A stretch of DNA of 61,513 nt, counting the filler, from Dirinaria sp. TL-2023a (taxonomy: Eukaryota), in NCBI GenBank assembly GCA_051941275.1. It is 3 parts of 3 records of this genome, joined end to end, with 100 filler letters (N's around TTAATTAATTAA, not from the genome) between each part and the next. Parts side by side here need not be neighbours in the genome. Positions count along the whole stretch, not along the records: positions 41,084 to 61,513 come from JAVEBF010000288.1; 2 more parts are not named here. One strand, written 5' to 3'. How positions within the stretch are numbered: the first letter of the stretch is position 1; the number at the start of each line of letters is the position of its first letter. The notes below the pieces were generated by a model. It did no database searches. It saw only the letters and a program-made list of their open reading frames with translations, and was not told the DNA's origin. Shown here piece by piece: positions 24,964 through 60,552 of the stretch. The position numbers and the translations under genes are program-made.

Positions 24964-25474
24964 CTTGGCGCACTGCTGCTACTCATGTACGCCGAGTCTT
25001 GCGACAGTTATCGAACAATAGCTATCGATGAGCCAAGGCGACTTGAATTTGGTGAGTTTTGAGATTTCTTCCTGATCAAGTCCCAGGGATGGTTATCACT
25101 GCTGAGAAACATACGTTGACCAAGGTACGTGATATGTTCAGGGTTGCCTTCTAGTGTCTGGCAATACGTGGAAGTTGAAAAGGTTGAAGATAGTAGGCCC
25201 CCCCAGTAAGCACGGGCGAGGCGGTGTAAGGTTTTAGGGTCAGCATAGGGCTGGTCAGCCGCATAAAACACTCCCTCAGGATTTTTCATGGCTTAAGTCA
25301 GGTCACTTTGGTAGGAAGGCAGGTGGTACTGTCAAATTGGATGCACAGATTGATAATAAGTGACTGAGATATCGATAAGGAAAGGAATTCCATTCATTCT
25401 AGACACGGGTCCCTGGCTCCTTTTATCTTCTGCTATTGGTATTAAGGTAGGAAGTATAGCACCGTACACCTGAT

Positions 25475-29430: not shown

Positions 29431-30485
29431 TCAAGAATAGCGACCCACAATCGCCTGAAGCTCGTCATCGCTCAACTGCTTCATGCCCAGCAAATCGTTA
29501 TCCAATTTCTGGAAGTGACCCCCGAAATCCTCGCCCCAAACGCACGCGATGATGAAATTAAAAATAAAGACACCCGGATTCGGTTTGTCTTTGCGAAGCT
29601 CTTCCCAAGCGTTCGCCAGCACTTCGTCCACGGCGACGATTTGTTCTTTCCAGCCCTCTGAGCCGCCGCCGGTGGCTTTCTTAGCCTTGGCCAGGAGGTC
29701 CTTCAAGGTCGTAGCTATGTCTTGAACAAATACCGCGCGATTCTTGGTCGCGTCTAGGTTCCGAAGCACGCCCACGACGGCTTTGCCAATGGATCCGAGG
29801 GTCGTGGTGCTGAAGACGCCGTCGCCGCCGTTGTAGAGGTTGATGCTCTTTTCCTTGGTCTTCATGAGAAAGCCGATCATGAAGCTCCAATCTAGGAACA
29901 GGCCGGTGTGGATCAAGGTATAAGACATCCCATCGGGGTTGCTGCTCGCTTGCTCCTTGAGGGCATCCTGCACCGCCACTTTGGGTTGGAAGATGGGCAG
30001 GGATCGCGTCTTCTCGTGCGAGGAGGTGTTAGCGCCGAATTCGGATGGGAGAAAGCGCTTGATGCCCGCTTTGGCAGCGGCCTCGACGAGTAGGAGTTGC
30101 TCATTGTTATTGGTGGAGCCGTTGTTGGGAAAGCTGGATGCGAGTGAGGGGAGGCTGGACACTACTGCGTCTTGGCCTTGGAGAGCCAATGTGAGAGAGT
30201 CGAGGGAGGTGTAGTCCACTTGCCGAACGGTGACCGAGGAAGGCAAATTAGGCGGGGTAGTTTGGCGGGTTAGGACTGTGACTCGGAAGCCGGCCGAGAC
30301 TAGAGCGTCGAGGATCGCGGGGCCAAGGTTGCCGGTTGCCTGCGGCACGAAGCTTGCGTTAGAGAAAGATAAGAAATGCCTTTGATGGAAGATAGCGTCG
30401 GATACAAGAGTTCAAGCTGTAAGGGTTCAAAATGCGAATAATGTCCACGTACCCCGGCCAACGCGACTTTGTCGATGGAGCTCAT
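29431..30485 (-). CDS. NmrA-like / isoflavone-reductase-family NAD(P)-dependent oxidoreductase (2 exons)
   Basis: MSSIDKVALAG|ATGNLGPAIL (GxxGxxG split by an intron), ALQGQDAVVS, AAAKAGIKRFLPSEFG, TGLFLDW. Confidence 0.9.
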
Positions 30486-31867: not shown

Positions 31868-33683
31868 TCACAACGAGCCACGCATCTCGAGAGACTCATA
31901 CATGTTGACTGACCCGATCCTCTGGTAGATTGCGTCAAGAGGATCCTCCTCATCCGTGATTTTCCCCTTCTGCCGTTCCATTCTCTCATTTACGGCCCAG
32001 GAGATTCTTTCGGCACCAACCCTGGCGCCTTCCAAATTTCCGCAGTCGGGACCGATTCTGAGACCTGCTAGCTTGCCTGAAACATAAAGAGGCACGTCGC
32101 TCGCCCATGCAAGGTCTTCGGTCAAGCACGGCATACCCCCAATGACTTTGATTGGCACGTTCTGACGTATTTTTGAGAGAAATGGAAGGTGCTCGATGTC
32201 CGGTCGAGCGCCCGTGGCATAGTACACATAATCGACTTGGCTTGGAAAGCCCGGAATGGTTGGCTCGGTTTCGATGTTCCAGGTTTTGCGATCAGCAGCC
32301 CACGTCTGGTTACTGATGATTGTCTCTGTGTGGATAGAGAGCGCGCCACGAGCAATATGGGCTTGCAGCTTCTTAAAGAAGAGGGGTGGGATAGAACCTC
32401 CATTTCGTGCCTTGAGCAGTATTTCGAGGCGTTCTAATGCACAATTAGTAAACATTCTTCACCGCTCTTAGTCTGCTAACGTCTTGCCTTCGTCGCTATC
32501 GGCAGACCAGAAAGCCGCCTTCTGCACGTTCTTATACTTAGCCATCCAGTCAAGGTCGACATCAAAAGGCTTCACTGGCGTTCAGTAAGCACGATCCATT
32601 CTCGCGATGCAATGTGATTGACCACTTGCGTTTCAGAGCACTTCTCATGATCATAAAGACCCGGCTCACCCCATCCTGTATACACTTGTTTGCAAGCTGC
32701 GCGGCCGTTAATCCTCCTCCTACAATTACAACCACCGTCGACTGTCGTGTCAGTATCTTTTGCCTTACGCTTCTTGCGAGAAAGGCTTGCTTCGGTAAGT
32801 GTGCGCTATGACACGCGCCTTCTCTCTCTGCTGTTGATAGGTGTCGAGGCATGATCGGCTCACCACCAGCCCCGATAGCAAGAACTACAATCTTTGCAAA
32901 TTGAACACTCCCACTACCCGTGACTACTTTGAAAACTCTTTTTTCAGGATCGCCATTATTAGAATCATCGAAGAACCCAAAGTCGATCGATACCACCTGC
33001 GACTGTTCAACCAGATTCTCCAAAGAATACTGGTGTACCACGCCATCACAGTAGTCGTGGAACAGTTCTGAAGATGGAGTGAAGTAATCCTTACGGTCTC
33101 GCTCGTCGATTTCAAGCACGGCTTTACTTGATGACCCGACACTTTGGCCCCTAGCCACTTTCTTCTTTCGTCTATGCTTGCTCATCGATTTGTGCACACA
33201 GTTCGCGATCTCAACGCAGTCGCCGTAGCGATCTGTCTTGTGTGCATAGGCTAGTAATCCATCGCGATCGTGAGGACAGGGATGGAAGAACATGGGACTT
33301 CGGAGGTGCGAGATGTCCAAAGTTTCGAAATTCTTCTTCCAGCTGTTCAGCCAATTGGCGCCGCTGCTGTCTAGGACTTTGATATCGATCGTATCTCTGT
33401 GGAAGCTCGCCGCATTGCACCTGAGAAGTATGTGTTCAGTCATGATGCCTGCAGAGCACATGGAAAAGGTTCAGTACTTAGTAATGGAGCACTTGGACTT
33501 TTGCGCATCCCGAGCACGGGGACGAAGGTTCATGCGCCCGGAATGCCTCTTGATCCACTGATAACGGTCATGCTCTGCGTCTGTGAAGATCGAGGAGGGT
33601 GTGGGCTCTCGGAGACGGGCAGCGACAGCAAGACCCGCTGGCCCAGCGCCAATTATCAGTACATCATGAATCATTGTATCCAT
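31868..33683 (-). CDS. FAD/NAD(P)-binding oxidoreductase (lysine N6-monooxygenase-like fold), multi-exon
   Basis: DVLIIGAGPAGLAVAARLRE, HLRSPMFFHP, VVLAIGAG, second Rossmann motif VVIVGGGLTAAQL, YYATG, GNLEGARVGAERI. Confidence 0.85.
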
Positions 33684-40179: not shown

Positions 40180-40599
40180 TCAGGCATGTGTCACTTCGAT
40201 CGCTGGCTGATGATTCTGACTCTTCACGGCAGCGCCACTTTTTGAGCATGCTGACGTCTGCATCGGCATACCGCAATCTTGGATTGAAAAAGAATGACCA
40301 CTAAAACAGATTGACCAATGACCCGTATCAGTAAAGTCCGACGCCATTGCTGCGTACATCCGCTGTTTCTTCTCATTATCGACTGATGTATTGAAAGGCT
40401 TATCTTTTAGCATCATATGGACGTCTGAAAAATCTCTGAGTATGGTTTGAATTCGAGGCGAGTACCTTTCGCATGTTCTCCGTGTCAAAGCCACGTGTTG
40501 CTTCGCCTCTGAGAGTAATGTCTCGGACCGTTCAAGGCTTGAAGATTTGCAAGAACCTTCAATTATTGACCACTGAACAAAGAAAATTTGGTCCTTCAC
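40180..40599 (-). pseudogene. Degenerate C-terminal fragment of an NFX1/ZNFX1-type helicase (RZ-type zinc finger)
   Basis: MYAAMASDFTDTGHWSICFSGHSFSIQDCGMPMQTSACSKSGAAVKSQNH resembles the RZ finger GHWyyCxNGHPFxIGeCGMPMexARCPECGAxVGGqNH. It has lost the last Cys and several Gly/Pro residues. No intact upstream gene. Confidence 0.7.
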
Positions 40600-41522: not shown

Positions 41523-44324
41523 CTGCTTGTCGGCAACCGGATTGTCTCGGTAATTAGCGACGTTTTGGGGGAAAGACATTTTACTAGATTCTCGATTCGT
41601 GGATAGATCTTCTTTGATAATCATAGAGCTGTTCTAGAGTTGGGTGATCATTTTGCCTTCGTAACACCGCGTCGGATCTGATTCTATGTGTGCAGCGCGG
41701 ACACTCTGAATGAGATTATTCGACGTAGCAACGAATTCCCGAGGCCGCTTGAGCTCTACGATGAGTTCCGCAACTTGTTTCGTAATTTTTTTTTTTTTTT
41801 TTGTTTTGAATTTCTTACTCGATTCAACACCCACGAGGGGCCTATGCGAGATCTATATACTTGTATCGGCGCTGCGTTGGCGCGGCGACCGACTCTATCT
41901 TTATTACATGTAGTTTTCTCTATCCGTAATACTAGGAAATCCTTCATGCGAGGACTCTATGAGTCTAGTGATCTGAAGGAAGAGCAGTCGCCTGGAACTG
42001 ACTGAGTAGACCAGTGGACAAAATCATTCGTATCGCCGCTGTGACATCAGCGACGCTATCGAGCAGCTTTCTCACATTTGTGCTGTAGTTCGTTCTTCGT
42101 TGCATGTCTAGTTTCTTCTGTCTTCAAGTAGAAGACATTAGTAGCACATTTCTGACTGTGATGCGATCTTGTTCGCAGTCACAGATCTCTGTAGTCACCT
42201 CAGAGACACGTCGTTTGCTCAGAAATTGATTGAAGTTTATCTTACTCGTTCTCAGCTGTGTAAGCAACGCACTGTGTGACTTCGCTCGTTCATCGTGGAG
42301 TTGTATATGACGTCGAGTTACCGCAGACGTCAACGCGCGATAATGAGCTTCATTGGTGCCTTCTTTCCACTTTCTTCGCCATTCCGCGCGAGCTTGTTCT
42401 TGAACTAACGCCGCTCTAGCGACAGGTTCGCACGTCAGTTGATTGGGCAGCGAATATTTGTGTGCCTCACTGACTACTCTATCCGCTTTTTCGTTACCTT
42501 TTATTTCTTTGTGGCCGGGTACTCAGTGAAGTTCCAATGAAGCTCCTTTTCTTCGTATCGCTTCACACGCGCTCTGTATGCGCCGCAGACGTTGTTGATC
42601 TGCCGTCGAGATCATTGTGTTTACTACCCTTAGTGATGCCTGACTATCTGAGTAAATCCTATAAATTTTGCCCTCGCAGTTATCACTTCTTTCGCAGTGA
42701 GCTGCCAGTTGCTCAGCGCCGATAGTAAGTCCCTCGAGCTCTCCATGATGTGGTAATGCTATATCGATTCCTCCAAGACGTCTTCCCTGTTCCCAGTTTG
42801 CGCCGACTGCGGCTGCGGTCACATCACTATCTTGACCACTTCCGTCCGAGTAGACTCGCCAGTATGGGTTTGATTTGTCCGCATTGTGATGTTTCCTAAT
42901 TTGTGGACAAATTTAATCTCAATAGAGTAGCTGCATTCCTGACGAGTATGCCGCGTAGGTTGAAGGCTCAGAATGACAGCGTCAGCGAAAACTTACCAGT
43001 GGGCCCTTCAACGACGAACACTATAAACTTGTCTGAATCGAGTCGATTCGTCAAGCCAGCGAAGCGCTTATGTGCTGGCTATGGAAGGAGCATCCAGTGA
43101 CAGATACGGTGAAAGACGTCAGAGCACTCTCACTGCATGTCCTTTCCAGCGCCGGTTTCGGAAAGTTCTATCATTTCCAAAAAGGCGGTGAACAATCAAA
43201 ACCCGGCCATGTTTTCAATTACAGAGACGCTCTTGCTTGTATCTTAGACAACATCATGATTATCTTTGTAGTCGGTCCTGGAACACTCAAGAGCCGTTTT
43301 CTACCTAGGCCTTTGTCCAAGATTGGTCATGCAATGTTAGACTTCCAAGCCTACTTGAAAGATATCTACGATGAAGAGGTTTGCTCTATGTTCGAAGAAA
43401 GACAAGCGTCAGTCAATATAATGGCTTCGCTAGTCCGCTCCACGACACTAACAGATGACGACGCGAGTTTCGGGGAATCCGCAAAAATGTCGCCCACAAA
43501 AAGTGCTCCTAGGGGTCTTTCTGAGTCTGACATATATGGTAATGCGTTTGTATACAACTTTGCTGATCATGACACGACGGCGATTACACTGAGCTGGGCC
43601 ATCTACCTTCTTGCTGCAAATCCTGAAGTGCAGGAATGGATCGGTGAAGAGATAAGAGCAGTATGGAAACCCGACGAGGCAGCGATCAATGAGTATCGCG
43701 AGGGTTTTCCTAAGATGAAACGCTGTTTGGCTATCATGGTATGTCTAGCACAGCTGAAATTAGGCCTCAGGGATCTTTAAGTGATACATTTACTCACTTG
43801 GAGTATTTCAGCTTGAGGTTCTTCGGCTTTGTAATCCACTGCCAGGTATCATGAAATCAACCAACGAGAAGATCCTTGATATAAACATTGGGGTACAGAC
43901 AATAACGATACCAGCGGGCGTTCGAGTCATTCTGCACACCTGTGCAATCCATACAGATCCCAGATACTGGGGCTCTAGCTCCCTCGAATGGCAATCACAG
44001 CGGTGGATTGCCACGGCGAGCAAGAGTACTTCCAGTTGGGAGGGCGAAACTCTGATTGATCCGCCTCAGGGTATTTACGCGCCATGGTCTGGAGGCCCTC
44101 GAATATGCCTAGGAAAGAAGTTCGGGCAAGTGGAGTTCGTAGCGGTTATGGCTACTCTCTTTAAAGATTATAGAGTGGAGCCGATTCCCAGACTGTCCGA
44201 GACCCTACAAAGTGCTAGAGCGAGAACACTAGCCGCAGCCAAAGACAATGAAATCGTACTCTTGCTTCACATGTCAAAGCCAGAGAGTGTGAGTCTTGAA
44301 TGGGTCAAGGAAAGCTCCAAGTAG
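41523..44324 (+). pseudogene. Cytochrome P450 pseudogene, split by a LINE and carrying multiple nonsense mutations
   Basis: 5' part 41523-41760 (HFTRFSIRG*IFF..ELGDHFAFVTPRRI*FYV..EFPRPLELY). 3' part 42959-44324 (VEGSE*QRQRKLTSGPFN..LV*IES; FADHDTTA I-helix; EVLR; WSGGPRICLG heme motif). Stops at 41604, 41679, 42974 and 43034 fall at Trp-like positions. Splice donor mutated to ATGAGT at 41761. Confidence 0.88.
41786..42889 (-). mobile_element. 5'-truncated non-LTR retrotransposon (Tad1-like LINE): RNase H, degenerate zinc knuckle, 3' UTR, poly(A)
   Basis: RVYSDGS..HGELEGL..IYSDSQASL..LELH*VPGHKEIKGNEKAD (RNase H), LLTQLRTSKI, CDCEQDRITVRNVLL, stop at ~41965. Poly(T) on the + strand at 41786-41802. 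Candidate TSD TGTTTC(G/C)TAATTT at 41776-41788 and 42890-42902. Confidence 0.88.
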
Positions 44325-44593: not shown

Positions 44594-47500
44594 TTACTCT
44601 AGTCTCGTAGCAAACCTGTTCAATACTGAATCATCTGCAAAGAACCTCGTCACTTCATCGGGCTCACACAAAACAAACTCACAGCTTCCATCCAGCAAGC
44701 GAGGCAGAACCACAGGCACCGAGGGTAAATTGCCTTGCGACGGGACCCTGAAAGCCGCTATTCTATCCAGCGTATCACCGAAGTCGATATCATACGTCTC
44801 GAAGCCGAACCAACTGGTAAAGAACACGGCACTCGTCTGAAAATTATCCAGAACGCCCAGACGAATTGGTGCGTGCAAGTGGTTCTTGTCCACCATAGCG
44901 AGAAAATCGCGGAATTTGTTTCCCGTCAGATTCTTGAGTTCAGTGCGCATTGCGAGTGCCGCGGCTTGAAGGCCCGGCACTCTTGCAGCCTCCGATCCTG
45001 ATATCTGTGGATTGGTTGCGGCAGCACTGTCATTGCTAGACACTAATTCAGCGAAGGGCAAAGTAGCGTGAGCCGCGAACACCACGTTTCCCAAGTAAGA
45101 ATCCGCAAGGCCAAGACGTTTGCGGCAGTTCACCGACTGAACGAAGTGCGTGGACGACTCGTCTTCAGAGAATAGGCCGGCACAACGACGAGCGCGGAAA
45201 ACACTTCGCCAGATGAGCGCTACGATAGCGTCATGTGTTGATATACGAGTACGATCGACAAAATTGGCCTCCCTGTTCTCGCGACCTGGCGTCGGCGTGG
45301 CGGCATGTTTCAAGTCGGCAAGCGTACTGCTGCTGATGCGGAAAGTCGTGCAGCTGGTCCTTTTCAAGACAGTTCGCTTCGATAGACCAATATACCAGCT
45401 TGGATGATTGTCTACATTTCCAAGCATACCTTTCCCGAAGACAAGAGTACTTCGATCGTAGAAACACCTGGGTTTTGATGTTTCGCCGACATCTTGCTGT
45501 GTCTTTTGAGCTTTCCGTAAGTTCTTTGCAAAATACTTGATAATCTCATGAATTCCATGTCCATCACACACTGCGTGAATTACGGTCACAGCTAGAAGCA
45601 GGCAGTCGTCGACAAATGTGGCTCGGAAGCGGCAGATGTCGCTTGGATTTCGATCATTGGCCCCGTTCTCGAACAATGGGCAAAGCTGCTCACCATCTAA
45701 AAGCTGGGTAGGAAACCCTTTTTCGTGGAGACCCCTGTACTTGACATTTTGCACACGTCTCACTTCAAGAAGAGCAGGCCCCTGGCGATAGAGGTTCGAC
45801 AGCCATGGTTTGTCTTGGGAATATGGTGCTACTGTCCCCGCTAGAAAGGGGTGTTCTTGTATCGTTGACCTGAAAGCCTTCAGAAGCGATTGCGTTATCA
45901 GCTGCATTTGGTCGTTACTGCCATCTGATAGAGAAAAACACAGTATCCTCCTTGAACAGCTGGTTCCCCGACACATATCCCATGAAGACAGTCGTAAGTC
46001 ATGAGATAAACTCGGGATCGCGAACGATCTCTCCGTCTGTATGCCCTGGGTGACGAAGATTATTCCCAGTATCTCGAGAGCCTCGCTGACACTCTTGGTC
46101 CAGTTTTCCCGCTTACACAGCCACTCAGCACATCGTTTCATTCCATCCACCGCCCTTGTTGCCTCATCGTGGCTCAGATGGCAATCGTCGTAACGCAATC
46201 TCATACCTCCCTCTTCTGGACCCAGAAGTCCGCAATCCCATATTGTATTTACGTCGGAATGGGTCCGGTGCTGTATAACCTTGAAGGCCTGATCATCGAC
46301 ACCACTAGGATCGAGAATTCCCTCTAACGTTCCGTTCCAGTCAAAACATTGTCCCCTCAAGGCCTCGGCAAATGCGGCAGCGTCTGATGCGTCTAGAGAC
46401 TCTTTAAGTTGGCTATGTGGTGCTTGAGCATGCTGCGTGAGAAGTTGCTGGTCCCTTTTAAGGTTCTGAAGAAATGATATCATGAGTTCGGTAGGTGATG
46501 GTTTGATTCGATTTACCACGAGCGAGAATGTGGGGCCCGCTATTGAGACAGAATCTGGAAGATGACTATTTGTAACTAAAATGGTATGATCAGCTACAAG
46601 TTCTATGGTAGAATGCGATATTCTGCCCTTTATTCTCAGTTCCGGAACGTCCAATTGTCATGCCCTAAGCGTAAGACTGAAGCGGGGGCACGATGATGGA
46701 AGCAAAGACTTACAGCTATTCAGGAACGGCCACTGGCGGGCAGCCTGGAAATTTTGGAACACAGCAGTGTCTTGTCCTGTGATCAGCATGTTGAATAAGG
46801 CAAGTCCAGCTTTAACTACAATGTCTGCCGAGATTCCATATTCTGTCTTTAGCATCTGAATCCCTGTTAGATTGATTTTAGTTGAGACGCCTTGGATACC
46901 CATGCCGCGGTTGGGGTTGCGTTGCCTGCGCTCACTCGTATACCCTGGCTTTCCGTCTAGGTGCTTCCAGCCTTCGTCGTCGCCGATGAAGTAGCCAGGT
47001 GTTTTCGGCGTTGGCCAAAAGCAGGGCTTTAATTCCGCGAGTCCTTTGAGTCGATCTCGATGAAAATTGACGGAGAGCTCTGCAAGAAGGCAATTACGCT
47101 GGCAATAGTAAATGTCGGCAAAGTGTTTGTAAGAAACGCTGAAGCTTCGCAAGGCCGAGGGATCGAGAAGAAGCCGGCTGACGTCTTGCAGCCATGCTGA
47201 CAGAGAAAAGGCATCATAAATAGCGTGATGAATCCTAATTGTTGCACCGATCTTTCCAGTGCTCTTCACTCTGACGATACCAACGCGAAAGAGCGGACTT
47301 TGAGGAAATCCCGATTGGAACGCTGGTGGCGATGTGTTGGCGAGGTGATCAGTGTTGTCTATCTCAATAGCTGTGTCAATCAAAAGTGACATCCATTTCG
47401 GAGTCGGGCGAATGCAGAGGAATAGCCGAGTTCTCGAGTCAAACTCAAGTGACATAGATCGAAGTAGTGGCCAGGCACGCAAAGATTTTTCAATCGCGTT

Positions 47501-49823
47501 ACGAAACATCGTCGGCTCGGTTAACTCGCTTACTAGCGAGATGTGAACATTCCATGACTGCAGTCGAGAGTTACCGAGAAGATGGTGCTGGTAATCGGGC
47601 ATTGGTATTACAGCTTCCACATCGGTATCCCAATCAAGGTGAAAATGGCTAAGAAGCGGTGCTGCAAGGATTTTGGTCCGTTGTACGCGGCGATTATCTC
47701 CATGGGCATGTACCATATCAACAGGGTCTGGAGTCCCCACATCCAATGGTCTAGATGCCGGCCTAGCCATCGTTGATTCAAGGTTTTCGAAGTGTTCGGC
47801 CTGTTCTCGAATGGTGCGAAGACATAGTAATTGCGGAAGATCAATGCTCCTACCATATTGTCTTTTTACTAAGCCCTGGAACCTAAGGACCTCGAGGCTA
47901 TCAGCTTTATCAATGATGTCGGGCGTAGCCAGTAAATCCTTGATTGGCTCAAGTAATAGGTGAGACCATATTGTAGCAAATGACATCTCAATCGAAGCCT
48001 TATCTGAGTTTAGTTGGTTGTTTACACGCTGCAGATGGCCTTTTATTAAAGTCCGAAGGGTGTCCTTTTTGACTTTCCCACTATTCGTCTTTGGAATGTT
48101 AGTAAGACCTAGCTCGTCAAAAGTCAGAATGGCTTCAGGCGCAAAAGCAGAGCCAAGTTCCCTCGCTATGTGCCTTCTCAATTCTTTGTCATCAGGCTGG
48201 CATCCAAAGCTCATCTGTACGATCGCGACTGGAACCTCCCCCGCAACAGCATCGGCTATCCCAATGACATGGACTTCCTATGAGCGCAGACAGTCAGTTG
48301 GAGCTAAATGGGGTTGTAATCACAGATCTGTTCCTTACGCGTATCGCGGAGATCTTCTTTAGCTGGAACTCTATCGCTGCTGGTGCTATATTTTCCCCGC
48401 CACGTATTATCAAATCTTTGTATCTGCCCAGGATGAATGCGTTCTCTGCATCGTCCAGCAAGGCTTGGTCGCCGGTAGCCATCCAGTTACATCCGTCGTC
48501 GTCGACATAGAATTGGTCATCAGCTAAGCCTAAGTAAGATGTGATAACCCGAGGACCGCCTATATGGAGTTCTCCAATGTCTCCTCTACGAAGGGTCTCC
48601 CTAGTATCAGGATCACATATTTTGACTGTCGCGTTTGGCTGAACGCGGCCCACACTAGCGAAACCGTTGTAGAGGGTCAGTGGTCTGTCAGCGCTTGTCG
48701 CGAAGATACCTGAGGCTTCACTCATGCCAAAACCCCCATATACAATTTTGGCACCCAAGATAGACGGGTTCTTGCAGGCTTCAAGCATCTCTGGAGAGAC
48801 AGTCGCACCGCCAACGAGAACTGCGAGAGGAGAGACTGTGTTGTGCGAAGGATCGGGGAGATCAAGAAGGGTCTGGATCATGGTCGGTACCGCGGCTAGA
48901 AAGGTGACTGCTTCCTCTGCTATAACCTTCCTGATTGCTTTTGGTTCCAATTGGCCACTGGGCATGACCACCTTAGCTCCGCTTCGCCAACACCGGATTG
49001 AAACATCAACACCCATCTGATGAAAAGTAGGCGAAAGAACAAGGGCAGTAGGAGGGCTGGACGCAACAGGACTCGATCCGGTAAAAGGACTGTTATGAGA
49101 CAAGCTTAGCGTGGTATGAGGACAACCTTTTGGGGAATTTGTCGTGCCGCTAGTGAATATTATCAACTCGACATCATCTTCTCTATCTTCGTTCTCTAGG
49201 TCAACCGCTTGGTCCATAAGTTCTGTAACTCCCATAGTCTTGATAATTCTACTAAGTGACGTCCAACTCTGGCCAATGGCACCCTCGAGTTCTTCTACTG
49301 CAACACGGGCCTTAATATTTCTGTCTTGCTCGCGGCAAACATAGTCAACTTCTTGCGCTGTTATAGTATCATGAACTAGGATCGCAGCTGGGTTCACAAC
49401 CGAGAGATAATGCTTCAAATCTTGCCTTCGTTTGGCACTGCGCCAGTCAAGAGGAACAAAAGTAGCTCTAAGCAACGCAGCTGCCCACAGCGCCAGGGCA
49501 AATCCAGCCTCGTTACCTAAGAAGGTGATGATGCAATCCTGCCGAGTAACGCCTTGCCGCTGAAGCCAGGTAGCAAAAGCTCTCGATTTTGTGTAGAGCT
49601 GGCTGTAGGTCCAGCGAAGCCCATCAAGGGCCGCGTTGTTGTCGTTATTGCAATTAGATCCCTCACCAGTGTATCCAAATGGAGGAAGGCAAACCAGAGC
49701 TTCTTGGTCGCCACGAAGCTTGACCGACTGGCGGAATTGAGTCTGTAGACTCGAACATTCTACCTTTTCCTTGGCCCCTTTGATAAGAGCAATATCTTTA
49801 GCCAAACTCGACGTTGAGACCAT
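44594..49823 (-). CDS. NRPS-like protein A-T-C fused to a C-terminal BAHD/Tri101-type acyltransferase (~1,676 aa, 3 exons)
   Basis: A domain of acyl-CoA-ligase type: FTSGTTNSPKG, GFGMSE, GELHIGG, TGD, GRYKDLIIRGGENI. T domain ADSL. C domain HHAIYDA. Transferase HPFLAG, HAVCDGHG, YLGNVV, DIDFG. GT-AG introns 48278-48338 (phase 0) and 46576-46713 (phase 1) keep one frame to the stop at 44594. Confidence 0.85.
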
Positions 49824-50658
49824 GTTTGCAGTGGTTGGGTCCAAAAAGATGAGATCAACTTGTTGATAGTTGGGCTAAGAAAAATCGTGCTCTACTGCTG
49901 GAATACTTCGAGACGTGGATCTTAGCATTGAGGACGTATAGGTACTGGGGACTTAGGTGGCCCGAAGGTACCTAGTTTGTCATGATTCAACCAGAGGACT
50001 ATTTCTTTCGGCGCTAAATGCGTAGTTGCCTATAAGCTGATAAGACGACGTTTGCATCCCATCATGCCGTAGCTTATGCCGGTAGTTCTTGCTCTTGAGT
50101 CTTAGTGCAAAGGTGGCGTGAGATTCGGTCGTTTGACCTCAGAAGACTTGCAGACATGATCTAATTGCGCCGATTAAGTCCGCGGACGTTGAATCACCGA
50201 AGGTATCATTTCCTAGAGCAGTAAAAGGTCGTGTTTACATACCGATATTAGGCGTAACTTAAACGATCGTCCGCAACAAAGGATGATAGCATGCTGTCGA
50301 CCCATACACTAGATTTATTGGCTAGGAACTAAGCGTTCTAAAGTTAGTTTGCTATGTAACGGTCATACTCGGATTCGCCGCCCACAGGGAAGGTGACGTG
50401 GAGGGCAAAGATAGCTCAGCACTGGGTTATGGATCCACAAGACTTGCAGATATGGTTTGTGAATGCGAAGTAAGTCCCCGAATGTACAGAGGCCAGAATT
50501 AGGCTGGTCTAGAGCAGTAGCAGCCCTGACTCCAGCCTTCGTGGTTGCGTCTAGTATAAGCGATGATAGACAGAAAAAAATAATCGATGGAGCGATCCAC
50601 CCATCTACTAGGTCCATTGGTTGACCTTTCATCCAATCTTAAGCCCTAAAATTCTATT

Positions 50659-53600
50659 TTATCCGTTCTTTCCACCTTCCACACCATCCTGGACCAGGTT
50701 TTTATCTATCAAAGTGGATTCTGCCGCTATCTTACCCCCAAGGTGATCTATACTAGGGCTGTTCATCAAGACCATCAACGGCACTTTGGCGTCCAAGTCG
50801 CACGTGATCCAATTTCTGAACTCGACTGCTACAAGGGAGTCGAGCCCGTAGGCTACAATAGGTTTTTTGCTGTCGACATCGTCTTCGGTGATCATGAGTA
50901 AATTTGCTAGTTTCTTGATTAGTAAACCCACAATGATTTCCGTCGCTGAAGCAACGGAGGATGCGGCTTTAAGGCGCTGTCGTACGGGCACAACACCTTC
51001 AGTGGAGGTCTCGGTGCAGGCGGACATCGACTGAACGTCATGAAGGACGTGGCTGAACTTGGGATCAGATCCCCAGACAGGAAGAGGTTTTTCTGGAGAA
51101 AGCTTGAACCCAGTCAATGTTTGCTGATATATAGGGTTGTGGGGATTATCAATGGCAGCTTTAATTAGAGCATGAAGTTCGCACTCGGAAAGACTGTCGT
51201 GGGCCGCAAGACCGATTTCTGTGCGACGATCGATGTTCTCGGCAACGTAACCAACATTTTCCACGATGCCAATATCAATTGTGCAAGCTGCTAGACCAAG
51301 GCTTTGTCGGTAAGCAGCAAAGGAATCCAGGAAGGAATTCGAAGCTGCGTAGGCGGTCTGCCCGGGATTACCGAGAACACCAGAGCCAGATGCAAGTACG
51401 ACGAAGAAATCCAAAGGTGAGGTCAAAAAGCTATGATGCAGATTCAAGGCACCGTTAACCCTAGGGGCAATGTTGAGTGTCCAGTCTTCGTGAGAGATCC
51501 GGTCAAATAGAGCATCTCTGAGCGCCATTGCTCCATGAATGACGCCTCGAATTGGTGGCATGGTCTGATGACATTCGTCAACAAGAGACTGAACTTGGGA
51601 GCGATCAGCGATGTCGCATGCTTTGACAACCACGTGGGCACCAAGACATTTGACTTCATCGATAAGCTCTGTGATGCCCGATTGCTGAAGTCCACTGCGT
51701 GATGCAAGCACGATGTGCTTTGCTCCCTGACCAGCGAGCCATCTAGTGATGGACCTTCCCAAGCCACCTGTGCCCCCTGTGATGAGATAGGACGCATGCG
51801 GGGACACGGAGACTTTTGGTAGAGGAGCTGGCATAGCCTGTTGAATACTTTCAGTTTCATCATCTGCATTATATTGTCCCGTAGACTCACCTGCACTTTA
51901 TCACAAGTATTTACTTCAACGACTACTTTGCCCATATGTTTCCCTCCTTGCATTACGCGCATACCTTGACCGAGCTCGGACATGGGTAAAGTCTTAATGG
52001 GGGTTATTGGTCGTATGATATTGCATCGATGCAGCTCCATAATATCCGTGAGCATTTGTTTAATCATCTGGGGTTTGGCTTCTAGAAGAACGCCAAGATC
52101 CACAGATATGAAGGAAACCGAGTCTGCAAATTTTTCCATTTCGAGATTTGCGTTTTGCACAATATCCCGCTTTCCGATTTCAATGAATCGACCGAGAGGT
52201 GCAAGACACTGAAAAGATTGATGCAGTATCTCGCCTGCCGTAGAGTTCAAGATTACATCAACTCCTCGCTGATTTGTTTTTCTCATTAATGTTCTCGCAA
52301 AAGTGGTGTCACGACTAGAGAATATATGATCCTCTGGTATGCCGTATCTTTCAAGCAGAAGACTGCACTTTTCGCTCGAACCTACGGTTGCGTAGATTTC
52401 TGCTTTCGCGTTCTGCGCAAGCATGATAGCTGCTTGCCCCACACCGCCAGCAGCTGCGTGGATCAAGACTTTGTCGCCTTCACGTAATCTGCCCATCTCG
52501 AGTAATGCGTAACGAGCGGTGCAGAATACGACAGGAAAGGAGGCCGCTTCAGAGAACGTCATGTCTGACGGCATACCTGTCATCATCGAGTTCTTCACTC
52601 GCACTGATGAGGCATAAGCCCCTTTGGCCATTCCACAGACCCTATCACCAACTCTGAAGTCATAGACATCAGACCCTATGCGGCTGATAACTCCACTGCA
52701 CTCAAGACCCAGATCATGATAGTAGGGGATCTGTCCAAGGCTAATCATGACATCCTTGAAATTGATGCCTGTTGCTTTCACAGATATTTCGACCTCATCA
52801 TTCAAGAGAGGAAGCTGTAAGGTCTCATCAGCAACAAAAAATATACTGTCAAGCAGGCCTATCTGGCCAAGCTTCAGCTTCAAAGGCCGGCCTTCCTGGA
52901 CGAGATACTCCGGCTGTGGCAGTGGTGGACGTGTTTCTCGGACTACATACTCGTCCTTGCGTTTGTCCTTCAGAATTCGGGGAATGTAGAATACTCCATT
53001 TGTTTCTTTAAATTCCATGTCAGCGGCAAGACCTGATCTTTTCAAATTAAAAACGTGGCTGGCCGCTTGCAGGATGAGTTCTGCAGTATCGTCATCTGAC
53101 AGCCGAACTTTTGCGTCGAAGTCGATAGTCGCGAATCGCAGACCTGCATTTTCTGACCTAATAGATCGTGCCAAGCCAGCCACCATGTTGGCTAAAGGTT
53201 GCTGAGTTGAAGCTCCACGAGTAACCCAGAGTATCCCGCGAGCCAGTTGAAAAATGCTTTGCATTCTCTCCAGCGCTGTCCCATCGATCTCGAACCAGAA
53301 GGCGTCCTCCATTTCTAGAACAATAGCGTACTTGTCATTCAAGTCCGCCTCTAGCAGCTGACCGACGGAGACCACTCGAGTGGCTCTATCGCTCAAGTTC
53401 ATGCAAAGAGTATCGGTCAATGGGTCTTCCTTTCGCGAGAAGGTTTGAACGAGACTAAGATCCGGACAAGAGGGCTTTTGGTCAGATTTCGCTGTCGCTA
53501 ACATAACGCTAGCAATGCTATGACCGTCACCATTGATCTGTACACTCCCATCGACTCCTGTGAATCCATTTTCGTGAAGAACGCCATCCCAATGCGATTC

Positions 53601-56600
53601 TTTAAGGAATGGCCCATCACGGCGTTCAGGCTCCTCTCCAAGCCACCATCCTGCACATACATTTACATGTTAGTCAATATCCGCATTGGGCGACAAGACA
53701 CAAGATTAAATTGTTATGTGATGCAACCCCGTTGAGATTACTCCTTACCTGGAAGAGTCCCAAAGATAATCATATTCGACAAAAGCTGCCCTGTAATTTC
53801 CGCGATAAGAGCTTTACCACCCGGCTTAAGTAACCGCCGAACATTGCCAATAGTATTCGCCATGTTGGCCGTAGCGTGAAGGACGTTTGTGGCCACAACA
53901 AGATCATACGATTCAGATTGGAAACCCTGGCTAATGGGGTCTTGCTCTATATCTAGCTTTCGATAACCTAGAAAAACGCCAGAGTCAGTGATCGCTTCTC
54001 CGAATGTGAGTGGTTCAAATGAAACATAGCTTACTGATCCTCTCGGCCCATTCTGCTTGCTCTACCTCCGCACTTTCGAAAAAGCCTGTCGATACGTCAG
54101 TGAAGTCGAAATGGGCAAATCTATGGCCCATCTGGCGAAGCATTGGCATTGTTGCGCCGCCTGTGCCAGCCCCAAGTTCAATAATCCGCATGTTGGGGTT
54201 CTGATGCGCTAGCTTCCCAAGAATGGATGCTGTACGCTCGTAGCCCCAGTTCACCATATCATGCTGACGATAGTAGTTTTTGAGCATGTTATCTTCCAGC
54301 ATAATTGTGAGAGGCTCGACTTCTTGTCGAAAAATATAGGATAAATTACGGCCCATATTACACACCAAGCGCCCACAGTCGTCAGAAGACTCCACTTCCT
54401 GGAGAAATTTGGTCTTCTCCGCTGCTCCAGACTCAAGCCAATAGAAGTTCTGAAAGGGCAAGCATCTGCGATGACCTTCTTCGACTACAGCAGATAATAC
54501 CCTGAATAACTGTTGAAGGTGTGGTGAGAACCGTGTAGCTTCTTGCGGTATAATGTCCGCGATGGTGAGCTCGATATGAGCAAATGCAGCTCTCTCCAGT
54601 TTGTCTATCTGAGGAGTTGAACCCTTCTGATTTATTGGGCCGTCAAAAATGGTACGGAAATTCTTGGCAGACAGTAGATCCAGGTAAGGCTCCCAGTTCA
54701 ACATGTAACATAATTCGCGTTCACCAGAGTGGGCAATGTCGACATTCTGATCTGGTAGTTTTGTCACCACTAAACCATCCACTTTAATAAGCGGGTCTGA
54801 ATTGAACTCTCTATCCAGAACAAAAAAGGACGCGTGGATGTCCGGATTAGTAGTATTGACAATGGGTGAAGCCTGCGCGTAGCTAGCAAGTTGGAATCTG
54901 GGGGACGTAGGTAGGGCATGGCATATGGTGACCTCTTTCACAAAGGTTGGCACATGTATGTCGCTGCGGGAAAGATCGCCTCCAGCGGCGGCAAAGTCAA
55001 CAACCTGAAAGCATGCGTCGAAGGTACCTGGGTGAATTATGTGCATGCTTTCGTGATTGTTGGGCATCATCACTGCAGTATCGGGAATGATGATGATACC
55101 AATCGAAAGCCCGTTAGCAGCGTAGGCAGCAGAGATGTTTCGGAAGGCTGGACCAAATTCAAGGCCGCGCCGAGAAAAACGTGAGTAGATATCACTTGTA
55201 GTCAAGGTCTTCGTACATGAGCTGTTGAAGCTGTCGACAGTGTCTTTGTAATATCCCTTATCATCTTCAACTTGACGCGCTCCGTTAATTGGATTTGGCT
55301 CGAAGTCACCGTGGGTCAGCGAGATGAAACCATGGCAATGCTCTGCCCAGCCGCCTTCGTGAGTCCAAGAGAAAATCTGAAATTCGTTCCACGTATTTGA
55401 GACACTACGAGAGCCTTCCCTATGAGGACGCAGAATCAGCGACACTTCTGTCGCAGAATCATGCACAAGTACCATGGAACGGCCAATCTTGACTTGTCGC
55501 AGCTTGTACTGGCTTGCTGACGTGACAGAAATCTCATGCAGTAAAGCGTGCTGGTACGCGGCTTCAATTGCCATAGCTAGATAGCCAGTTAAGGGAAAGA
55601 TCGTGGAGCCTTGAACTTGATGATCCGCTAGCCAGGGGACGTCCGATATGCGGAGAATGTTTCTCCATCTAGGCTCAACGTGATTATAGTCATCGACAAG
55701 ACTACCCAATAAATCACTTCGAGGAAAGGCTCTACGTCGGTGATTTGCACTTAATCGTGATTCGTGCCAGTGTCGCTTGCTGTGGTTCCAAGGATATGTC
55801 GGGAGGTCTCTTAGAAGCGGTGGAGGTTCAAGATTTGCATGATTGATGGCTTTGAGATCAAGTCGGCAGCCTAAGACGAATAGCGCCGATGCAAGTGAAA
55901 GCATGGTAAGGCTTGCATTCTGGCCTCTTGTCAAGCTAGAGAAGTATCTTACTCTTGAAGCCCAGTGCGAATTGCTCCTCATGATATCTCGTATGGGAGA
56001 CTCTAGCGTGCAATGTGGTCCGATCTCGATGAGCGCATCTGGACCTTGACGTTCAGTGTACATGCTTTGAACAGCATCCAAAAATTGCACCGGACTAGTC
56101 ATATTCTCAACCCAGTAGGCAGCATCAAGAGATTTTGTGTCGATTTGACGGCCATGCACGGACGAGTGGAATTCCACATTCTGAGCGAGTTGGGGTTCGA
56201 CAGACTTTAGGGAAGCCAGATACTCGGACGAGATGTCTTGCATGTGATGTGAATGATAGGCAACATCCACCTTCAATTGACGACTGAAGTGATTCTCTTG
56301 TTCTGTAATGTTTTGAAGCCTTGAAATACCTCGCTCATCTCCGGAAGCAGTAATTAGAGATGGACCATTGACACAAGCTATGACCACTTGTGCGGACCCT
56401 AGTCTCTCGAGCATTGGCCGAACTTTTGCAGAAGAGGCCCCGATTGCAAGCATCCGTCCAGAACGTCCTGTTTGACCTTTGCTCAGAGTCTCTGCTAATG
56501 CGCCACGTTGATACGAAATCAACAAGCAAGCTCGTGCAGAAAGTGCACCAGCAGCGTAGGCTGCCGCAATTTCTCCGCTCGAGTGTCCAGCAACGGAAGA

Positions 56601-59046
56601 TGGTTTGATACCCCAAGAACAGAGTAGACATACAAGGGCAATTTGGACTGCGGTGGTGGCAGGTTGGCTAATTACGGGTTGGTTCACCAGAGAGGACTCA
56701 GCGTCTTTTCCTAGCTCGACTAGGATACGTCAACAATTTTCTGTTCATGACAGACATCATCTTCACCTACCTAACAGCGACCAATCAGCTCCAAAGTCCT
56801 TCAAGTACGCATCCGACTCCTGCATAGACTTCGCAAAGATCTCGTATGAAAAGAGCTCTCGGCCCATCGCATGCCATTGAGAACCTTGTCCCGTGAAGAC
56901 GAATCCCAGGCTTGGCTTGTTAAAGGATCTGGTGAAATTCCCGGAGCTACTAGCTAATGCTTCCCTCAGTTCTGTTGAGGTGGATGCAGCCACCGCTTCT
57001 CTCCAGTCCAATGTCGAGCGTCGATGGCCCAGAGTGAACGCCAATTGCTCTAAGAACATTGCGTCATCAGAAGCCTTGGCTTCGGAAAGATACGACGCTA
57101 GACTAATCAGCCTTAAAGGTGTAGAAGCGTGTGTGGAACGTTAAGAAAGGAAGATGTTTCGAGAGCGTTGAGGTAGACTTACCAAGCCTATCCATGTAGC
57201 ACTTCAGCGATATCTTATCGCCAGCACTAAACACAAACAGATATCTGCTCGACGCGCTGTTCTGTTCAAAAGACTCCGATGTCGCTACAGACTTAGCTTT
57301 TGTCCAAACGCCGTTGGTGTGGTGATCATCAATCCCCTTTGTATGCGGGTACCCGTTTGATGTTTGCTTTCCAATATACTGTTCGAGGATGACGTGTGCA
57401 TTGGTACCTACAACCTACAGTTATTAAAAGACAAAACCAGGAGATCATGCTAATTTGCCTCCGAACCCAAAGTTATTTATCGAAGCTCGTCGCGTTCGTG
57501 ATGTGGGCCAAGGTGCAAGCGAAGTTGGTACCTGAGTCTGGTAAGCCCAAGCTAAATAAAGATGTCGAGAATGGTACTTTCAGCTTCCAAGTCGCAAGCG
57601 GAATCGCCGGGTTCGGTGCCTCAAAGTTTATATTCGGAGGTATAATACCGTTTTCCAAGGCGTATATAACCTTGACCATCCCAGTCAACCCGCTGGCAGC
57701 TTCCAAATGCCCGACGTTGGTTTTGATAGAGCCCACGAACAATGGCTCGTCCCGGCCGTTAGTAAAGATTCTAGAGATTGCTTCTGCTTCTACAGGATCG
57801 CCAGCCGCTGTGCCCGTTCCGTGAGCTTCAACATAATCGGTCGCAGCTGGATCTAGCCCAACTGCGCGGTATGTACACTCCATCAAGCTTGCTTGAGCTT
57901 CACAGCTTGGAAAAGTAATACCATGTGTTTTACCGTCTTGATTGATGCCTGTGTTGCGTATGACGGCTCGAATGTTGTCCGAATTCTGGATGGCAGCGTC
58001 TAAGGGCTTTATTAGAAAGCTTACAATTCCCTCACCACGACCGTAACCAGTTCCTCGAGAATCAAATGTATATGACCTCCCCTGTTCGCCGAAGAGTCTA
58101 AAAGCGATTAGAATATGCACTTGGACGAAGCCCATCAACCCACCTGAGCATGCTCATTCCCACCATAGTGTCTGGGCTAAGCATGATATGGGCACCACAT
58201 ACAACAGCCTGACTGATCTCGCCAGATCGCAGGCTTTGACAGGCAGTATGAAGTGCCGCCAAACTCGAGGAACAGGCTGTATCCATAGTAATTGAGGGGC
58301 CTTTAAGGTCGAACACGTAACTGATACGATTAGACAGAATATTGGCTGAAGTACCAGTTGATTGATATACTGGGAGGTCCTCAACATCTTTCGATAGGAG
58401 GTTGGTGTAGTCAATCTGAGCGGCTCCAACGTAAACGCCTGTAGACGTACCCGCGATGTCATCGAGGGGCACGCCAGCTGCGTAACCCATTTAGCGATCT
58501 GGCTTCGCTTTGTCAAGTCCGAATAATTTACCGTTTTCGAGAGCTTCATATGTGACTTCGAGCAGTAGTCGCTGTTGAGGATCCATCGCCTAATTCAATT
58601 GTTAACCCTAACTTAAAATGAGCCTTAGGTACTTGCCTTCGCTTCATTTGGAGATATGTTGAAGAACGGAGCATCGAAAAGTCCAACATCTTCTTTCAAA
58701 AAGTGGGCTCCAGTACAGTTGAACTACGTTCATTGTGAGCCCGCACTGTGAGAGAGTCAGGATCATTTCGGGAACATACACAGCCACTTTTTGATGGGTT
58801 TGGATGGAAGTAAGCTGCTGCGTTCATTCGATCCTTTCGAATTTCGGACCACGCTGATTTACTGTTGCAGCACATCTCCCACAAGGCTTGAGGAGTCGTT
58901 GCATCTCCAGGAAATCGACCAGCAAGGCCAACAACAGCAATGGGCATTGTTGCGGCCTGCGACGGCGAAGAAGTAGGATCCTTTGCATCTTGCTCACTAT
59001 CAGGGCCATGCATGCCGTTGAGATTCTGAGTGAAAGTCATTGGCAT
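50659..59046 (-). CDS. Highly reducing iterative type I polyketide synthase (KS-AT-DH-cMT-ER-KR-ACP), multi-exon
   Basis: [83 protein letters not shown]. c[59 protein letters not shown]. No release domain. Confidence 0.96.
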
Positions 59047-59695
59047 GATAATCCTTCGTGTAGCAAAATTTTGAAGGACTTGAGAATAACAGCAAGAAAT
59101 CAGAGATATAAACTCGGTGGTTGGGGCCTCAGGTCCACGAGTAATTCTTAGAGTACGAAGGGTGAGATCGTAATCTCTGCGTCAACCGAGTGGCAACCCG
59201 TAGTGCACGCGATTTTAGCTAGTTAGTGTGCTAGGACCACTGCGTAAGATGACTAGCATATACCGTACAGCTAGTTGAAGGATTCAATTTTGTGTCTCGA
59301 TCCTGGACCTGAGGCGCATTCGGATGCACCAGCATGCAGAAAGGTCTGGTGGCAAGGAGGCCGGAATGGTGACGTATCGTTACGGATCTTTGAAGGCACA
59401 CAGTAGAATAAGCTTACGGAGTTGATCGAAGTGGTGCATTTTACACGGCGCGCTCCGGACATTCTCGGAGACTGTCGACAATAAAGACTTAAGATAGTAT
59501 AGATAAGCACTGGTGGTGCGTATTGAATATACCGTTACTTACGATCAAATTATTTTCAAATTGCGCGAGTAAAGCTTTGCTCCTGGGAAGGATCTACCGA
59601 AAAGGAATCGCCTAATTCAAAGACTCATCTATCACCGTCGTGTGGCGATAGTCACTATCAAACTGTGGACAGCCCTGACAAATTATGCCCAAGGC

Positions 59696-60552
59696 CTACA
59701 GGTGGGGATGGCTGCATTCGAGACTCCTCTGAATGGCTTGTCGTATCTCCCTGGCCATAGCTCGAGTAGTTGAGGGGTCCCAAGGAATAGCATGACTCCT
59801 GCCATGGTCGTAGATTTCTGCCGACTGTCTATCACAGAGGTTGTACAAGGCCAGAGAAGCTCGGTAGCCAGGATCTCTTGATCCGACGATATGGGCTGTT
59901 GGGATGGTGATGCGTGCTGGCGATTCGTCCGCAAGGATAACTCCACGATCTTGGCATCGCTGAGGAGGAGTCCCGCAAAGAAAAACCGCGAACTTGAATC
60001 GGCTCTTGAGGTTTTGCGCCGCATGGCGGAGCAGTAGACTGGCAGCCACGGAAGCACCTTCGGAAAAGCCTAGTATACCATCGAAAATGTCTTCCTCCTC
60101 CTGCACAGCGAGTTCTTCAACGAAGTCGCAGGCCGGCGCTGCACTGAAATCAAGTAGGCCATGCTGTCCTAGCTTTCGCATAAACTCTTCTGGGCTCAGT
60201 TTTTCTTCCGAACGTGCGCTGTCGAGGCCTCCCGCTAGGCCAGTCAATTGAGGGGCGTCATCGCCATAGAAACGGTAGTAAGGGCCTTCGTATTGTTCGG
60301 CTACGCCCACCATAGCGGGTGCTAGATTGGGTCCATCGATAAAGGTTAGGTGCAGCTCATGGGTCTTGCGTAGTTCGTACAGCACAGGAGCTTTGTTTAA
60401 TCAGTCGACGAATTGCGAGTATGTGCTGCTAATCACCTAGCTGGGTTTGCAGAATCTGTCGGAGGATGTTAGCTGGATCTGTTTCAGGCGTAGGCTTCAG
60501 TCTGAGATACATTTGCGTTCATGCCCACGCCGTGAAGACAGAGAATCCTCAT
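59696..60552 (-). CDS. FSH1/LovG-like serine hydrolase, candidate trans-acting PKS thioesterase (3 exons)
   Basis: MRILCLHGVGMNAN start (ATG 60552), GILGFSEGASVA nucleophile elbow, IPTAHIVGSRD (Asp) and DHGRSHAIP (His). Lies directly upstream of the PKS in the same orientation. Confidence 0.9.

Follow-up and report, generated by a model that had tools for sequence, protein, structure and literature searches.

A four-domain gene in the Dirinaria genome

The window analyzed here is a 61,513-nucleotide (nt) stretch of DNA from Dirinaria sp. TL-2023a (GenBank assembly GCA_051941275.1), in which positions 44594..49823 hold what is, as judged from its sequence, a single intact gene from a lichen-forming ascomycete. 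The predicted protein resembles a nonribosomal peptide synthetase (NRPS) module with an adenylation (A), a thiolation or carrier (T) and a condensation (C) domain, and it continues through a short linker into an acyltransferase of the Tri101/BAHD type. The features of the gene are the following:

44594..49823, minus strand: whole gene, three exons and 1676 amino acids (aa) in the order A-T-C-linker-transferase, from open reading frames (ORFs) and the spliced translation
48278..48338, minus strand: intron 1, 61 nt, GTAAGG..TAG, within the A domain, after motif A8 and before A9
46576..46713, minus strand: intron 2, 138 nt, GTAAGT..TTTAG, within the C domain
48074..49631, minus strand: A domain, aa about 65-563, including intron 1, of the acyl-coenzyme A (CoA) ligase/ANL type
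47783..47995, minus strand: T (carrier) domain, aa about 590-660, with the Ser622 codon at 47899-47897
46070..47665, minus strand: C domain, aa about 700-1185, including intron 2, with HHAIYD at 47230-47213
46034..46069, minus strand: linker of 12 residues (ILGIIFVTQGIQ), from the end of the C domain to the first transferase residue
44597..46033, minus strand: Tri101/BAHD-type transferase, aa 1198-1676 (479 residues), with HAVCD at 45577-45563 and DFG at 44785-44777
45925..46116, minus strand: 192 nt or 64 codons that the public gene model treats as an intron and that are read here as coding

Three long frames were found on the minus strand (48294..49874, 46658..48277 and 44594..46657), and two GT..AG introns join them between a start codon ATG at 49823-49821 and a stop codon TAA at 44596-44594, giving a spliced coding sequence of 5031 nt that translates into 1676 aa with a single terminal stop. 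Both introns contain stops in all frames as well as a branch-point motif, CTGAC at 17 nt from the 3ʹ end of intron 1 and CTGAT at 15 nt from that of intron 2. Both junctions are identical in the public gene model of this locus, KAL8828178.1 (P0001; 1588 aa), which comes from the Dirinaria sp. TL-2023a metagenome-assembled genome (MAG) and matches our translation with 100% identity; at intron 2 the joined product reads ...FLNSFTNSH..., and the family alignment is unbroken across this site. Exon 3 stays open over 660 codons through the C-lobe of the C domain and the transferase, which indicates that the single frame across both domains is not due to chance. After MKRCAEWL in the C domain, the next in-frame methionine is that of WDM, which lies 20 residues into the transferase, so that a transferase made as a separate product would have no obvious start near the domain junction.

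Domains of the predicted protein

In Pfam searches, the A domain matched AMP-binding (1.3e-57; 195.8 bits, cut-off 29.9) and AMP-binding_C (3.1e-08; 34.9-40.5 bits, cut-off 24.5). Its best matches in the PDB were 4CL, feruloyl-CoA and fatty-acyl-CoA ligases or synthetases (1.9e-28 to 1e-25), and the first chain in that list named as an NRPS stood at 7.1e-19. The segments that we take to be motifs A3 (TSGTT..PKG), A5 (GxxE), A7 (TGD), A8 (GRxKD) and the A10 lysine are all present and aligned with those of the relatives. By these comparisons, the A domain is a carboxylic-acid-activating ANL domain, nearer to CoA ligases than to those A domains of NRPSs that activate amino acids. Further along the chain, the 'DS' motif of the carrier domain, with the Ser (Ser622, in ADSL) predicted to bear the phosphopantetheine, was found in 12/12 aligned family sequences, as was the (H/Q/N)HxxxD motif of the C domain, which in the fusion protein is HHAIYD at residues 845-850 (H845-H846-x3-D850; HHAIYDA at 845-851).

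The C-terminal domain matched Transferase PF02458 (8.5e-19; 67.9 bits, cut-off 22.7) and TRI-like_N PF22664 (8.9e-13; 48.7 bits, cut-off 27) in Pfam, and a profile built from 19 sequences matched the TRI101 structure 2zba in the PDB at 2.2e-37. When exon 3 was modeled by AlphaFold, the predicted local distance difference test score (pLDDT) was mostly >90 from the first strand of the transferase (residue 181) to residue 659 and low at exon-3 residues 170-177, the linker region; it was <50 over most of residues 1-132, where the C-lobe was folded without the N-lobe, a value that says nothing on the C domain. Foldseek superposed the exon-3 model on TRI101 (E 2e-29, TMt 0.80-0.84), with a two-lobed, CAT-like fold. 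The two proteins are thus alike in fold, in family and in their HxxxD and DFG motifs (PDB 2zba, 2rkv and 3b2s), whereas their identity in the structural alignment is 18-21%, and TRI101 is a free-standing enzyme that transfers acetyl from acetyl-CoA onto a trichothecene.

The HAVCDG motif lies at residues 1350-1355 (H1350-x3-D1354) and DFG at residues 1614-1616. The His and Asp of HxxxD are present in 15/15 aligned sequences (the fusion and 14 relatives), and a strict DFG in 12/15, with GFG in P0008, NFG in P0011 and DWG in P0035; the C-terminal tail (EFVLCEPDEVTRFF...) is conserved in 14/14 aligned relatives and in the fragment P0039. The bounds of the linker were taken from the alignment, in which A-T-C proteins end at one side of it and free transferases start at the other. 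The junction can be aligned position by position to the C-termini of the A-T-C relatives and to the N-termini of the free transferases, and residues 3-477 of P0002 align to residues 182-656 of the exon-3 query. Taken together, alignment and structure model indicate that the C-terminal domain is a complete Tri101-type transferase with intact motifs and putative acyl-CoA-dependent O-acylation activity.

A sequence-only reading of this DNA had proposed a single frame through the A, T, C and transferase domains, with an A domain of the acyl-CoA-ligase type and a Tri101-like transferase, and these proposals are borne out by the ORFs and spliced translation, by the best PDB matches of the A domain and by the profile and Foldseek matches to TRI101, respectively. 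The coordinates that it gave for intron 2 (46713/46576) were exactly matched, and its quoted motifs, namely ADSL, HHAIYDA, the C-domain end ...WLCKRENWTKSVSE, HAVCDG and DFG, were all found where it had placed them. It had also called both introns frame-preserving; the spliced frame does stay open, although intron 1, with 61 nt, is not a multiple of three.

The public gene model and the domain junction

The public model P0001 likewise joins all four domains and differs from our model at two places. First, 46116..45925 is taken out as an intron; second, the last 28 residues are spliced off, being replaced after ...DGSC by 'LLRD' via a GTGAGT donor at 44682 (44594-44682). The 192-nt stretch is in frame, with no in-frame stop and no CTRAY motif, in contrast to both real introns with their branch-point motifs and stops. 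Its codons specify the end of the C domain (CKRENWTKSVSEALE), which is conserved (compare the A-T-C relatives P0019 and P0026), then the linker of 12 residues and lastly 37 residues from the start of the transferase; these 37 correspond in the alignment to residues 1-40 of the free-standing relatives (MDETFAVQCLPFKLQLSHWD...). The Pfam Transferase match starts within this stretch, and the same stretch was confidently modeled by AlphaFold. In view of the homologue alignments, the AlphaFold model and the missing branch-point motif, both removals look wrong, and the public model is probably without 64 + 28 real residues. A clone built from the public model would therefore carry a crippled transferase, in which the 64 junction codons are gone and the last 28 residues are replaced.

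Independent DNA came from the sole sequencing run found, a lichen metagenome available as contigs, of which seven pieces aligned to the gene region, six of them 95-99% alike and one 90-95% alike. A piece of 440 nt, about 97% identical, covers 45824..46263 and thereby reaches from the C-lobe over the linker to the transferase. It differs by 13 substitutions and is free of gaps, and 0/10 listed substitutions create a stop. Within the 192-nt stretch, 5 substitutions were listed, of which 3 are synonymous and 4 fall at third codon positions. For the transferase domain as a whole (aa 1198-1676), 11 synonymous and 7 non-synonymous differences were listed.

Rarity of the architecture and its relatives

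Exon 3 (659 aa) was searched exhaustively with HMMER against 1.84 billion representatives; 704 hits lay within an E-value limit of 0.001, and the best 150 of them were listed. Among these best 150 of 704, only P0001 matched both the C-lobe and the transferase. The C-lobe alone was matched by 29 of the 150, always at the C-terminus of the protein, for example in A-T-C proteins of 1162-1222 aa and in proteins of T-C size (666-707 aa), and the remaining proteins were transferase-only matches. P0001 was again the only protein found in a word-indexed search of longer proteins. With P0001 as the query, the ESM Atlas (clusters of at least 50 members) returned A-T(-C) clusters of about 1000-1270 aa, none with PF02458. 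The source names of ten A-T-C relatives and fusion proteins include no characterized enzyme, and our literature searches, whose coverage lay outside the MIBiG and InterPro architecture tables, found no description of an A-T-C-transferase protein.

The architecture had been taken to be rare in the sequence-only reading, which agrees with P0001 being the only protein to match both parts; a C domain together with a PF02458 domain after one A-T pair appears, by these searches, to be absent from the best 150 of 704 hits, from the Atlas clusters and from the literature, and was not found beyond this locus. The same reading regarded BAHD transferases as normally free-standing, which holds for the close relatives but not for CrmA, as excerpts of PMC5974471 and PMC9381783 present it, nor for the crotonase fusions described below. 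It had further named orthologues always split into two genes as an outcome that would speak against a fusion; the nearest relatives are indeed split or free-standing, whereas the tail of P0019 points the other way.

P0019 (KAL9594336.1; 1162 aa), from the MAG of cf. Caloplaca sp. 3, is an A-T-C protein that is 49% identical in the C-lobe. Its sequence goes on for ~20 residues beyond the C domain, as ...DIKVSFIARGIHTGRSLAVPGRCS, and then ends, and this tail aligns with the linker of the fusion and its first transferase residues (ILGIIFVTQGIQTERSFAIPS), about nine transferase residues being kept. The tail may, on this alignment, be a remnant of the same fusion. Two further proteins are the fragments closest to the transferase domain: P0101 (226 aa) is 61% identical and, after 157 unrelated residues, has a 'VIHPG' end where HxxxD is expected, and P0039 (155 aa) is 51% identical and diverges in the middle. 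It may be that the fusion predates the Dirinaria lineage and is decaying elsewhere. A short-protein search for a separate Caloplaca transferase gave two ENA fragments only. Compared with the Dirinaria protein, the gene model of P0019 itself lacks a portion of the C domain.

A single-protein scan of metagenomes matched 83 stretches, none of which was a relative, and a second scan found three free-standing transferase loci, which have no A-T-C neighbor within the available flanking DNA and were therefore rejected as split orthologues. At locus L001, on a metagenome contig, a free transferase relative lies by ORF pieces of the UstYa family and part of an MFS transporter (11815-12995 and 15358-16116, minus strand), a secondary-metabolite setting unlike that of the fusion gene, with no polyketide synthase (PKS) or A-T-C gene within 10 kb. 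At locus L002, a free-standing relative lies 5.7 kb from the KR end of a highly reducing PKS (HR-PKS) gene.

The Dirinaria MAG also holds an A-T-C paralogue, P0026 (1435 aa, partial), which is 46% identical in the C-lobe and ends shortly past the C domain with no transferase; its ~250 extra N-terminal residues have no Pfam match at E up to 0.01 and possibly stem from a merged gene model. In the closest transferase subfamily, P0005 (800 aa), P0016 (752 aa) and P0017 (848 aa) are fused to a C-terminal crotonase-like region. The crotonase/enoyl-CoA hydratase label of the fused regions is the source name, and P0178 is from Ophiocordyceps sinensis. These fusions hint at CoA-thioester donors.

Neighboring biosynthetic genes

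The genes next to the fusion gene, which form a compact cluster with it, are the following:

50659..59181, minus strand: HR-PKS (KS, AT, DH, ER, KR, ACP), from Pfam matches on five ORF pieces
59699..60400, minus strand: FSH1-type serine hydrolase, Pfam FSH1 2.9e-20
43037..44324, plus strand: cytochrome P450 in two ORF pieces, Pfam p450 1.9e-11 and 4.8e-17, convergent with the fusion gene

No methyltransferase family was matched in the HR-PKS ORF pieces 51447-53669 and 54018-56729, the short exon pieces at 53669-54018 lying outside the scan, and the HR-PKS may be one without a C-methyltransferase domain. By analogy with Lpg8, as excerpted from PMC13213483, the FSH1 hydrolase is likely the chain-release enzyme.

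Comparison with known systems

The published systems compared here are described from excerpts of the cited papers. In the astellolide cluster of Aspergillus oryzae, the A-T-C enzyme AstA (1338 aa) esterifies an aryl acid to a free alcohol, and the same molecule is then acetylated at another hydroxyl by AstG (471 aa; Pfam 'transferase') (PMC5024094). The likeness, drawn by description and not by sequence, is that a ligase-like A domain acts on a non-amino acid, that T and C domains form an ester and that a second acylation of the PF02458 type follows; the difference is that AstA and AstG are two proteins acting on a terpene scaffold, whereas here a single chain lies beside an HR-PKS, a hydrolase and a P450 (PMC5024094). 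The single-module A-T-C enzymes AneB, ThmA and FlvI have terminal C domains that esterify free alcohols (PMC10720950). In the reading proposed here, the present protein would resemble them, and the Fum10 plus Fum14 pair, in a C domain that ends the A-T-C part and takes a free alcohol as acceptor, with an HHxxxD-type motif whose second His is the likely base. Unlike the Dirinaria protein, these enzymes and the Fum10 plus Fum14 pair have, in those excerpts, A domains that activate amino acids (except Fum10) and no transferase domain (PMC10720950, PMC5024094).

In the lpg cluster of Aspergillus aculeatus, which contains the HR-PKS Lpg9, the serine hydrolase Lpg8, the CoA ligase Lpg6, the transferase Lpg3 and P450s, a polyketide acid is released, re-activated and esterified (PMC13213483). 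The parts list is equal to that of the Dirinaria locus (HR-PKS, serine hydrolase, ANL-type activator, transferase and P450), whereas the excerpted lpg pathway uses separate proteins, activation to CoA with no T or C domain, and an acceptor-making terpene cyclase (PMC13213483).

CrmA has the order isocyanide synthase (ICS)-A-T-transferase, with PF00501 and PF02458 together with a T domain (PMC5974471, PMC9381783, PMC10153163). Like the Dirinaria protein, it is a fungal NRPS-like protein with a PF02458 domain C-terminal to an A-T pair; unlike it, CrmA as excerpted starts with an ICS and has no C domain, while here the transferase stands after what reads as a complete C domain, which puts two acyl-transfer domains on one chain. 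The fusion protein has no ICS match in Pfam and does have a predicted C domain, so it is not a member of the CrmA family and may resemble it at most in a T domain that feeds a transferase, and no CrmA-like proteins were present among the best 150 of 704 hits. These CrmA excerpts already supply a documented case of PF02458 domains fused to NRPS-like proteins, and what appears to be new is an A-T-C protein with a Tri101-type transferase on the same chain.

Proposed origin and reaction scheme

Our preferred reading, to which we assign a probability of about 0.55, is a lineage-restricted fusion of an A-T-C NRPS-like enzyme with a Tri101-type O-acyltransferase that carries out a two-step acylation. 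The partners would have been an ester- or amide-forming A-T-C enzyme of the AstA/AneB kind and a transferase of the AstG/Lpg3 kind, joined precisely where one had stopped and the other had started, through a linker of 12 residues, as though an AstA-plus-AstG-like pair had been made one chain. In this scheme, the hydrolase would release the PKS chain as a free acid, with hydroxylation by the P450 as a possible addition. The A domain would then adenylate a carboxylic acid, most likely the polyketide acid, and load it onto Ser622 of the T domain, after which the C domain (His846) would pass the acyl group on to a free acceptor, at a hydroxyl or an amine. Finally, the transferase (His1350) would use a thioester linked to CoA or pantetheine to attach another acyl group to the same molecule, giving a doubly acylated product. 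We infer the substrates, the order of the steps and the acyl donor of the transferase; that two acyl groups are installed by one polypeptide is plausible by analogy with AstA plus AstG acting on one scaffold, as excerpted from PMC5024094.

If this fusion reading is true, two ester-forming steps of a polyketide pathway lie on one chain. In that case, the protein would be the first of the A-T-C enzymes in this analysis to contain a Tri101-type transferase, a compact starting point for engineering molecules with two acyl groups and a test case for whether a T domain can serve a BAHD-fold domain. To date, the fusion is restricted to a single lichen lineage, and its parts, like the parts list, have precedents in other fungi.

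Several observations weigh against the fusion reading. Its relatives keep the two halves apart: all A-T-C relatives other than P0001 end after the C domain among the best 150 of 704 hits, and in a near-relative search 11/11 transferases were free-standing (398-497 aa, 35-42% identity). As the close full-length transferase relatives (470-497 aa) are free-standing and the other A-T-C relatives end after C, the fusion could be young or narrow, and neutral. P0101 and P0039 look, from their alignments, like damaged, fragmentary or mis-called orthologues of the transferase part, and with P0019 they leave room for the view that this part may be dispensable in relatives. Two domain profiles also fell short in Pfam. 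PP-binding reached 17.3 bits in the fusion protein, under the cut-off of 20.8, which was passed by 4/7 family members scanned (P0026, P0074, P0066 and P0041). Condensation reached 25.7-28.4 bits in the fusion protein and P0001, under the cut-off of 30.6 and in the N-lobe only; 5/7 family members scanned (P0001 and six relatives) passed it, with relatives at 33.6-44.1 bits whose matches together span both lobes (profile positions 9-434). In the N-lobe of the C domain, the listed differences from the related contig were 6 synonymous and 11 non-synonymous, a pattern that hints at relaxed constraint there. For all six contig pieces overlapping the coding sequence, the lack of stops and the substitution counts cover the 39 listed of 58 differences. 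The search of sequencing runs for transcripts listed a single run, recorded as DNA, and no RNA. Lastly, no acceptor-making gene is visible in the window, which ends 1.1 kb past the hydrolase.

Alternative explanations

A possible but distinctly less probable explanation is dual off-loading, in which the transferase and the C domain both draw on the same T-tethered acyl group and deliver one acid to two nucleophiles, the expected product being a di- or oligo-ester, for example a diester of a polyol or a dimer of hydroxy acids joined by an ester bond. The pantetheine arm mimics CoA, the transferase starts 12 residues after the C domain on the same chain as the T domain, and the cluster has no separate CoA ligase or visible scaffold gene. 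In CrmA-type proteins, the A-T pair is directly followed by PF02458 with no C domain, which makes feeding from a carrier in cis plausible, though the excerpts of PMC5974471, PMC9381783 and PMC10153163 do not show it there. On the other side, Tri101 (by its PDB titles) and Lpg3 (by the excerpts of PMC13213483) use CoA thioesters, and no computed result touches the choice of donor. That one carrier feeds C and BAHD-type domains in cis, with the released polyketide acid being re-activated and delivered twice, is a proposal that we hold just as tentatively. If true, it would be a new logic for NRPS-like off-loading, the product would be an aliphatic di- or oligo-ester, perhaps a hydroxy-acid dimer of a kind known from lichens, and the Caloplaca remnant would mark an older, partly lost, lichen-specific pathway.

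We consider it improbable that the gene does not encode a working four-domain enzyme, either because it yields two products (through internal termination or splicing like that of P0001) or because it is a decaying read-through relic. Such a view draws on the public model, which cuts 46116..45925, with the first transferase strands, and the C-terminal 28 residues, on the end of P0019 about nine residues into the transferase and on the damaged look of P0101 and P0039, and there is no RNA run that would decide either way. Against it, no branch-point motif occurs in the 192 nt, whose encoded residues are conserved in relatives, the HxxxD, the DFG and the C-terminal tail fit the 14 relatives, and the AlphaFold model is confident; there is no in-frame methionine for a separate transferase; and, compared with a roughly 3%-diverged genome, the listed transferase differences lean to synonymous ones (11 to 7) with no indel in the aligned pieces.

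Least likely is direct capture, in which the transferase would esterify the ACP-bound HR-PKS chain as CazE and AzaD do while the A-T-C part adds a different, non-polyketide acid: CazF (an HR-PKS), CazE (an O-acyltransferase) and an acceptor give chaetoviridin A in vitro, with AzaD and MrPigD as homologous O-acyltransferases (excerpts of PMC8596599), and the free relative at L002 lies near an HR-PKS gene, but the FSH1 hydrolase beside the PKS suggests hydrolytic release, the relative at L001 has no PKS within 10 kb, and the membership of CazE and AzaD in PF02458 is presumptive.

Other genes in the window

From 33.5 to 43 kb of the window, Pfam gave nothing recognizably biosynthetic. Elsewhere, the window holds a GMC oxidoreductase (21346-22986), a protein with three WW domains (24265-24978), an NmrA-like protein (29434-30411) and a weak lysine/ornithine N-monooxygenase-like piece (32565-33470), and an RZ-type zinc-finger piece lies at 40183-40599.

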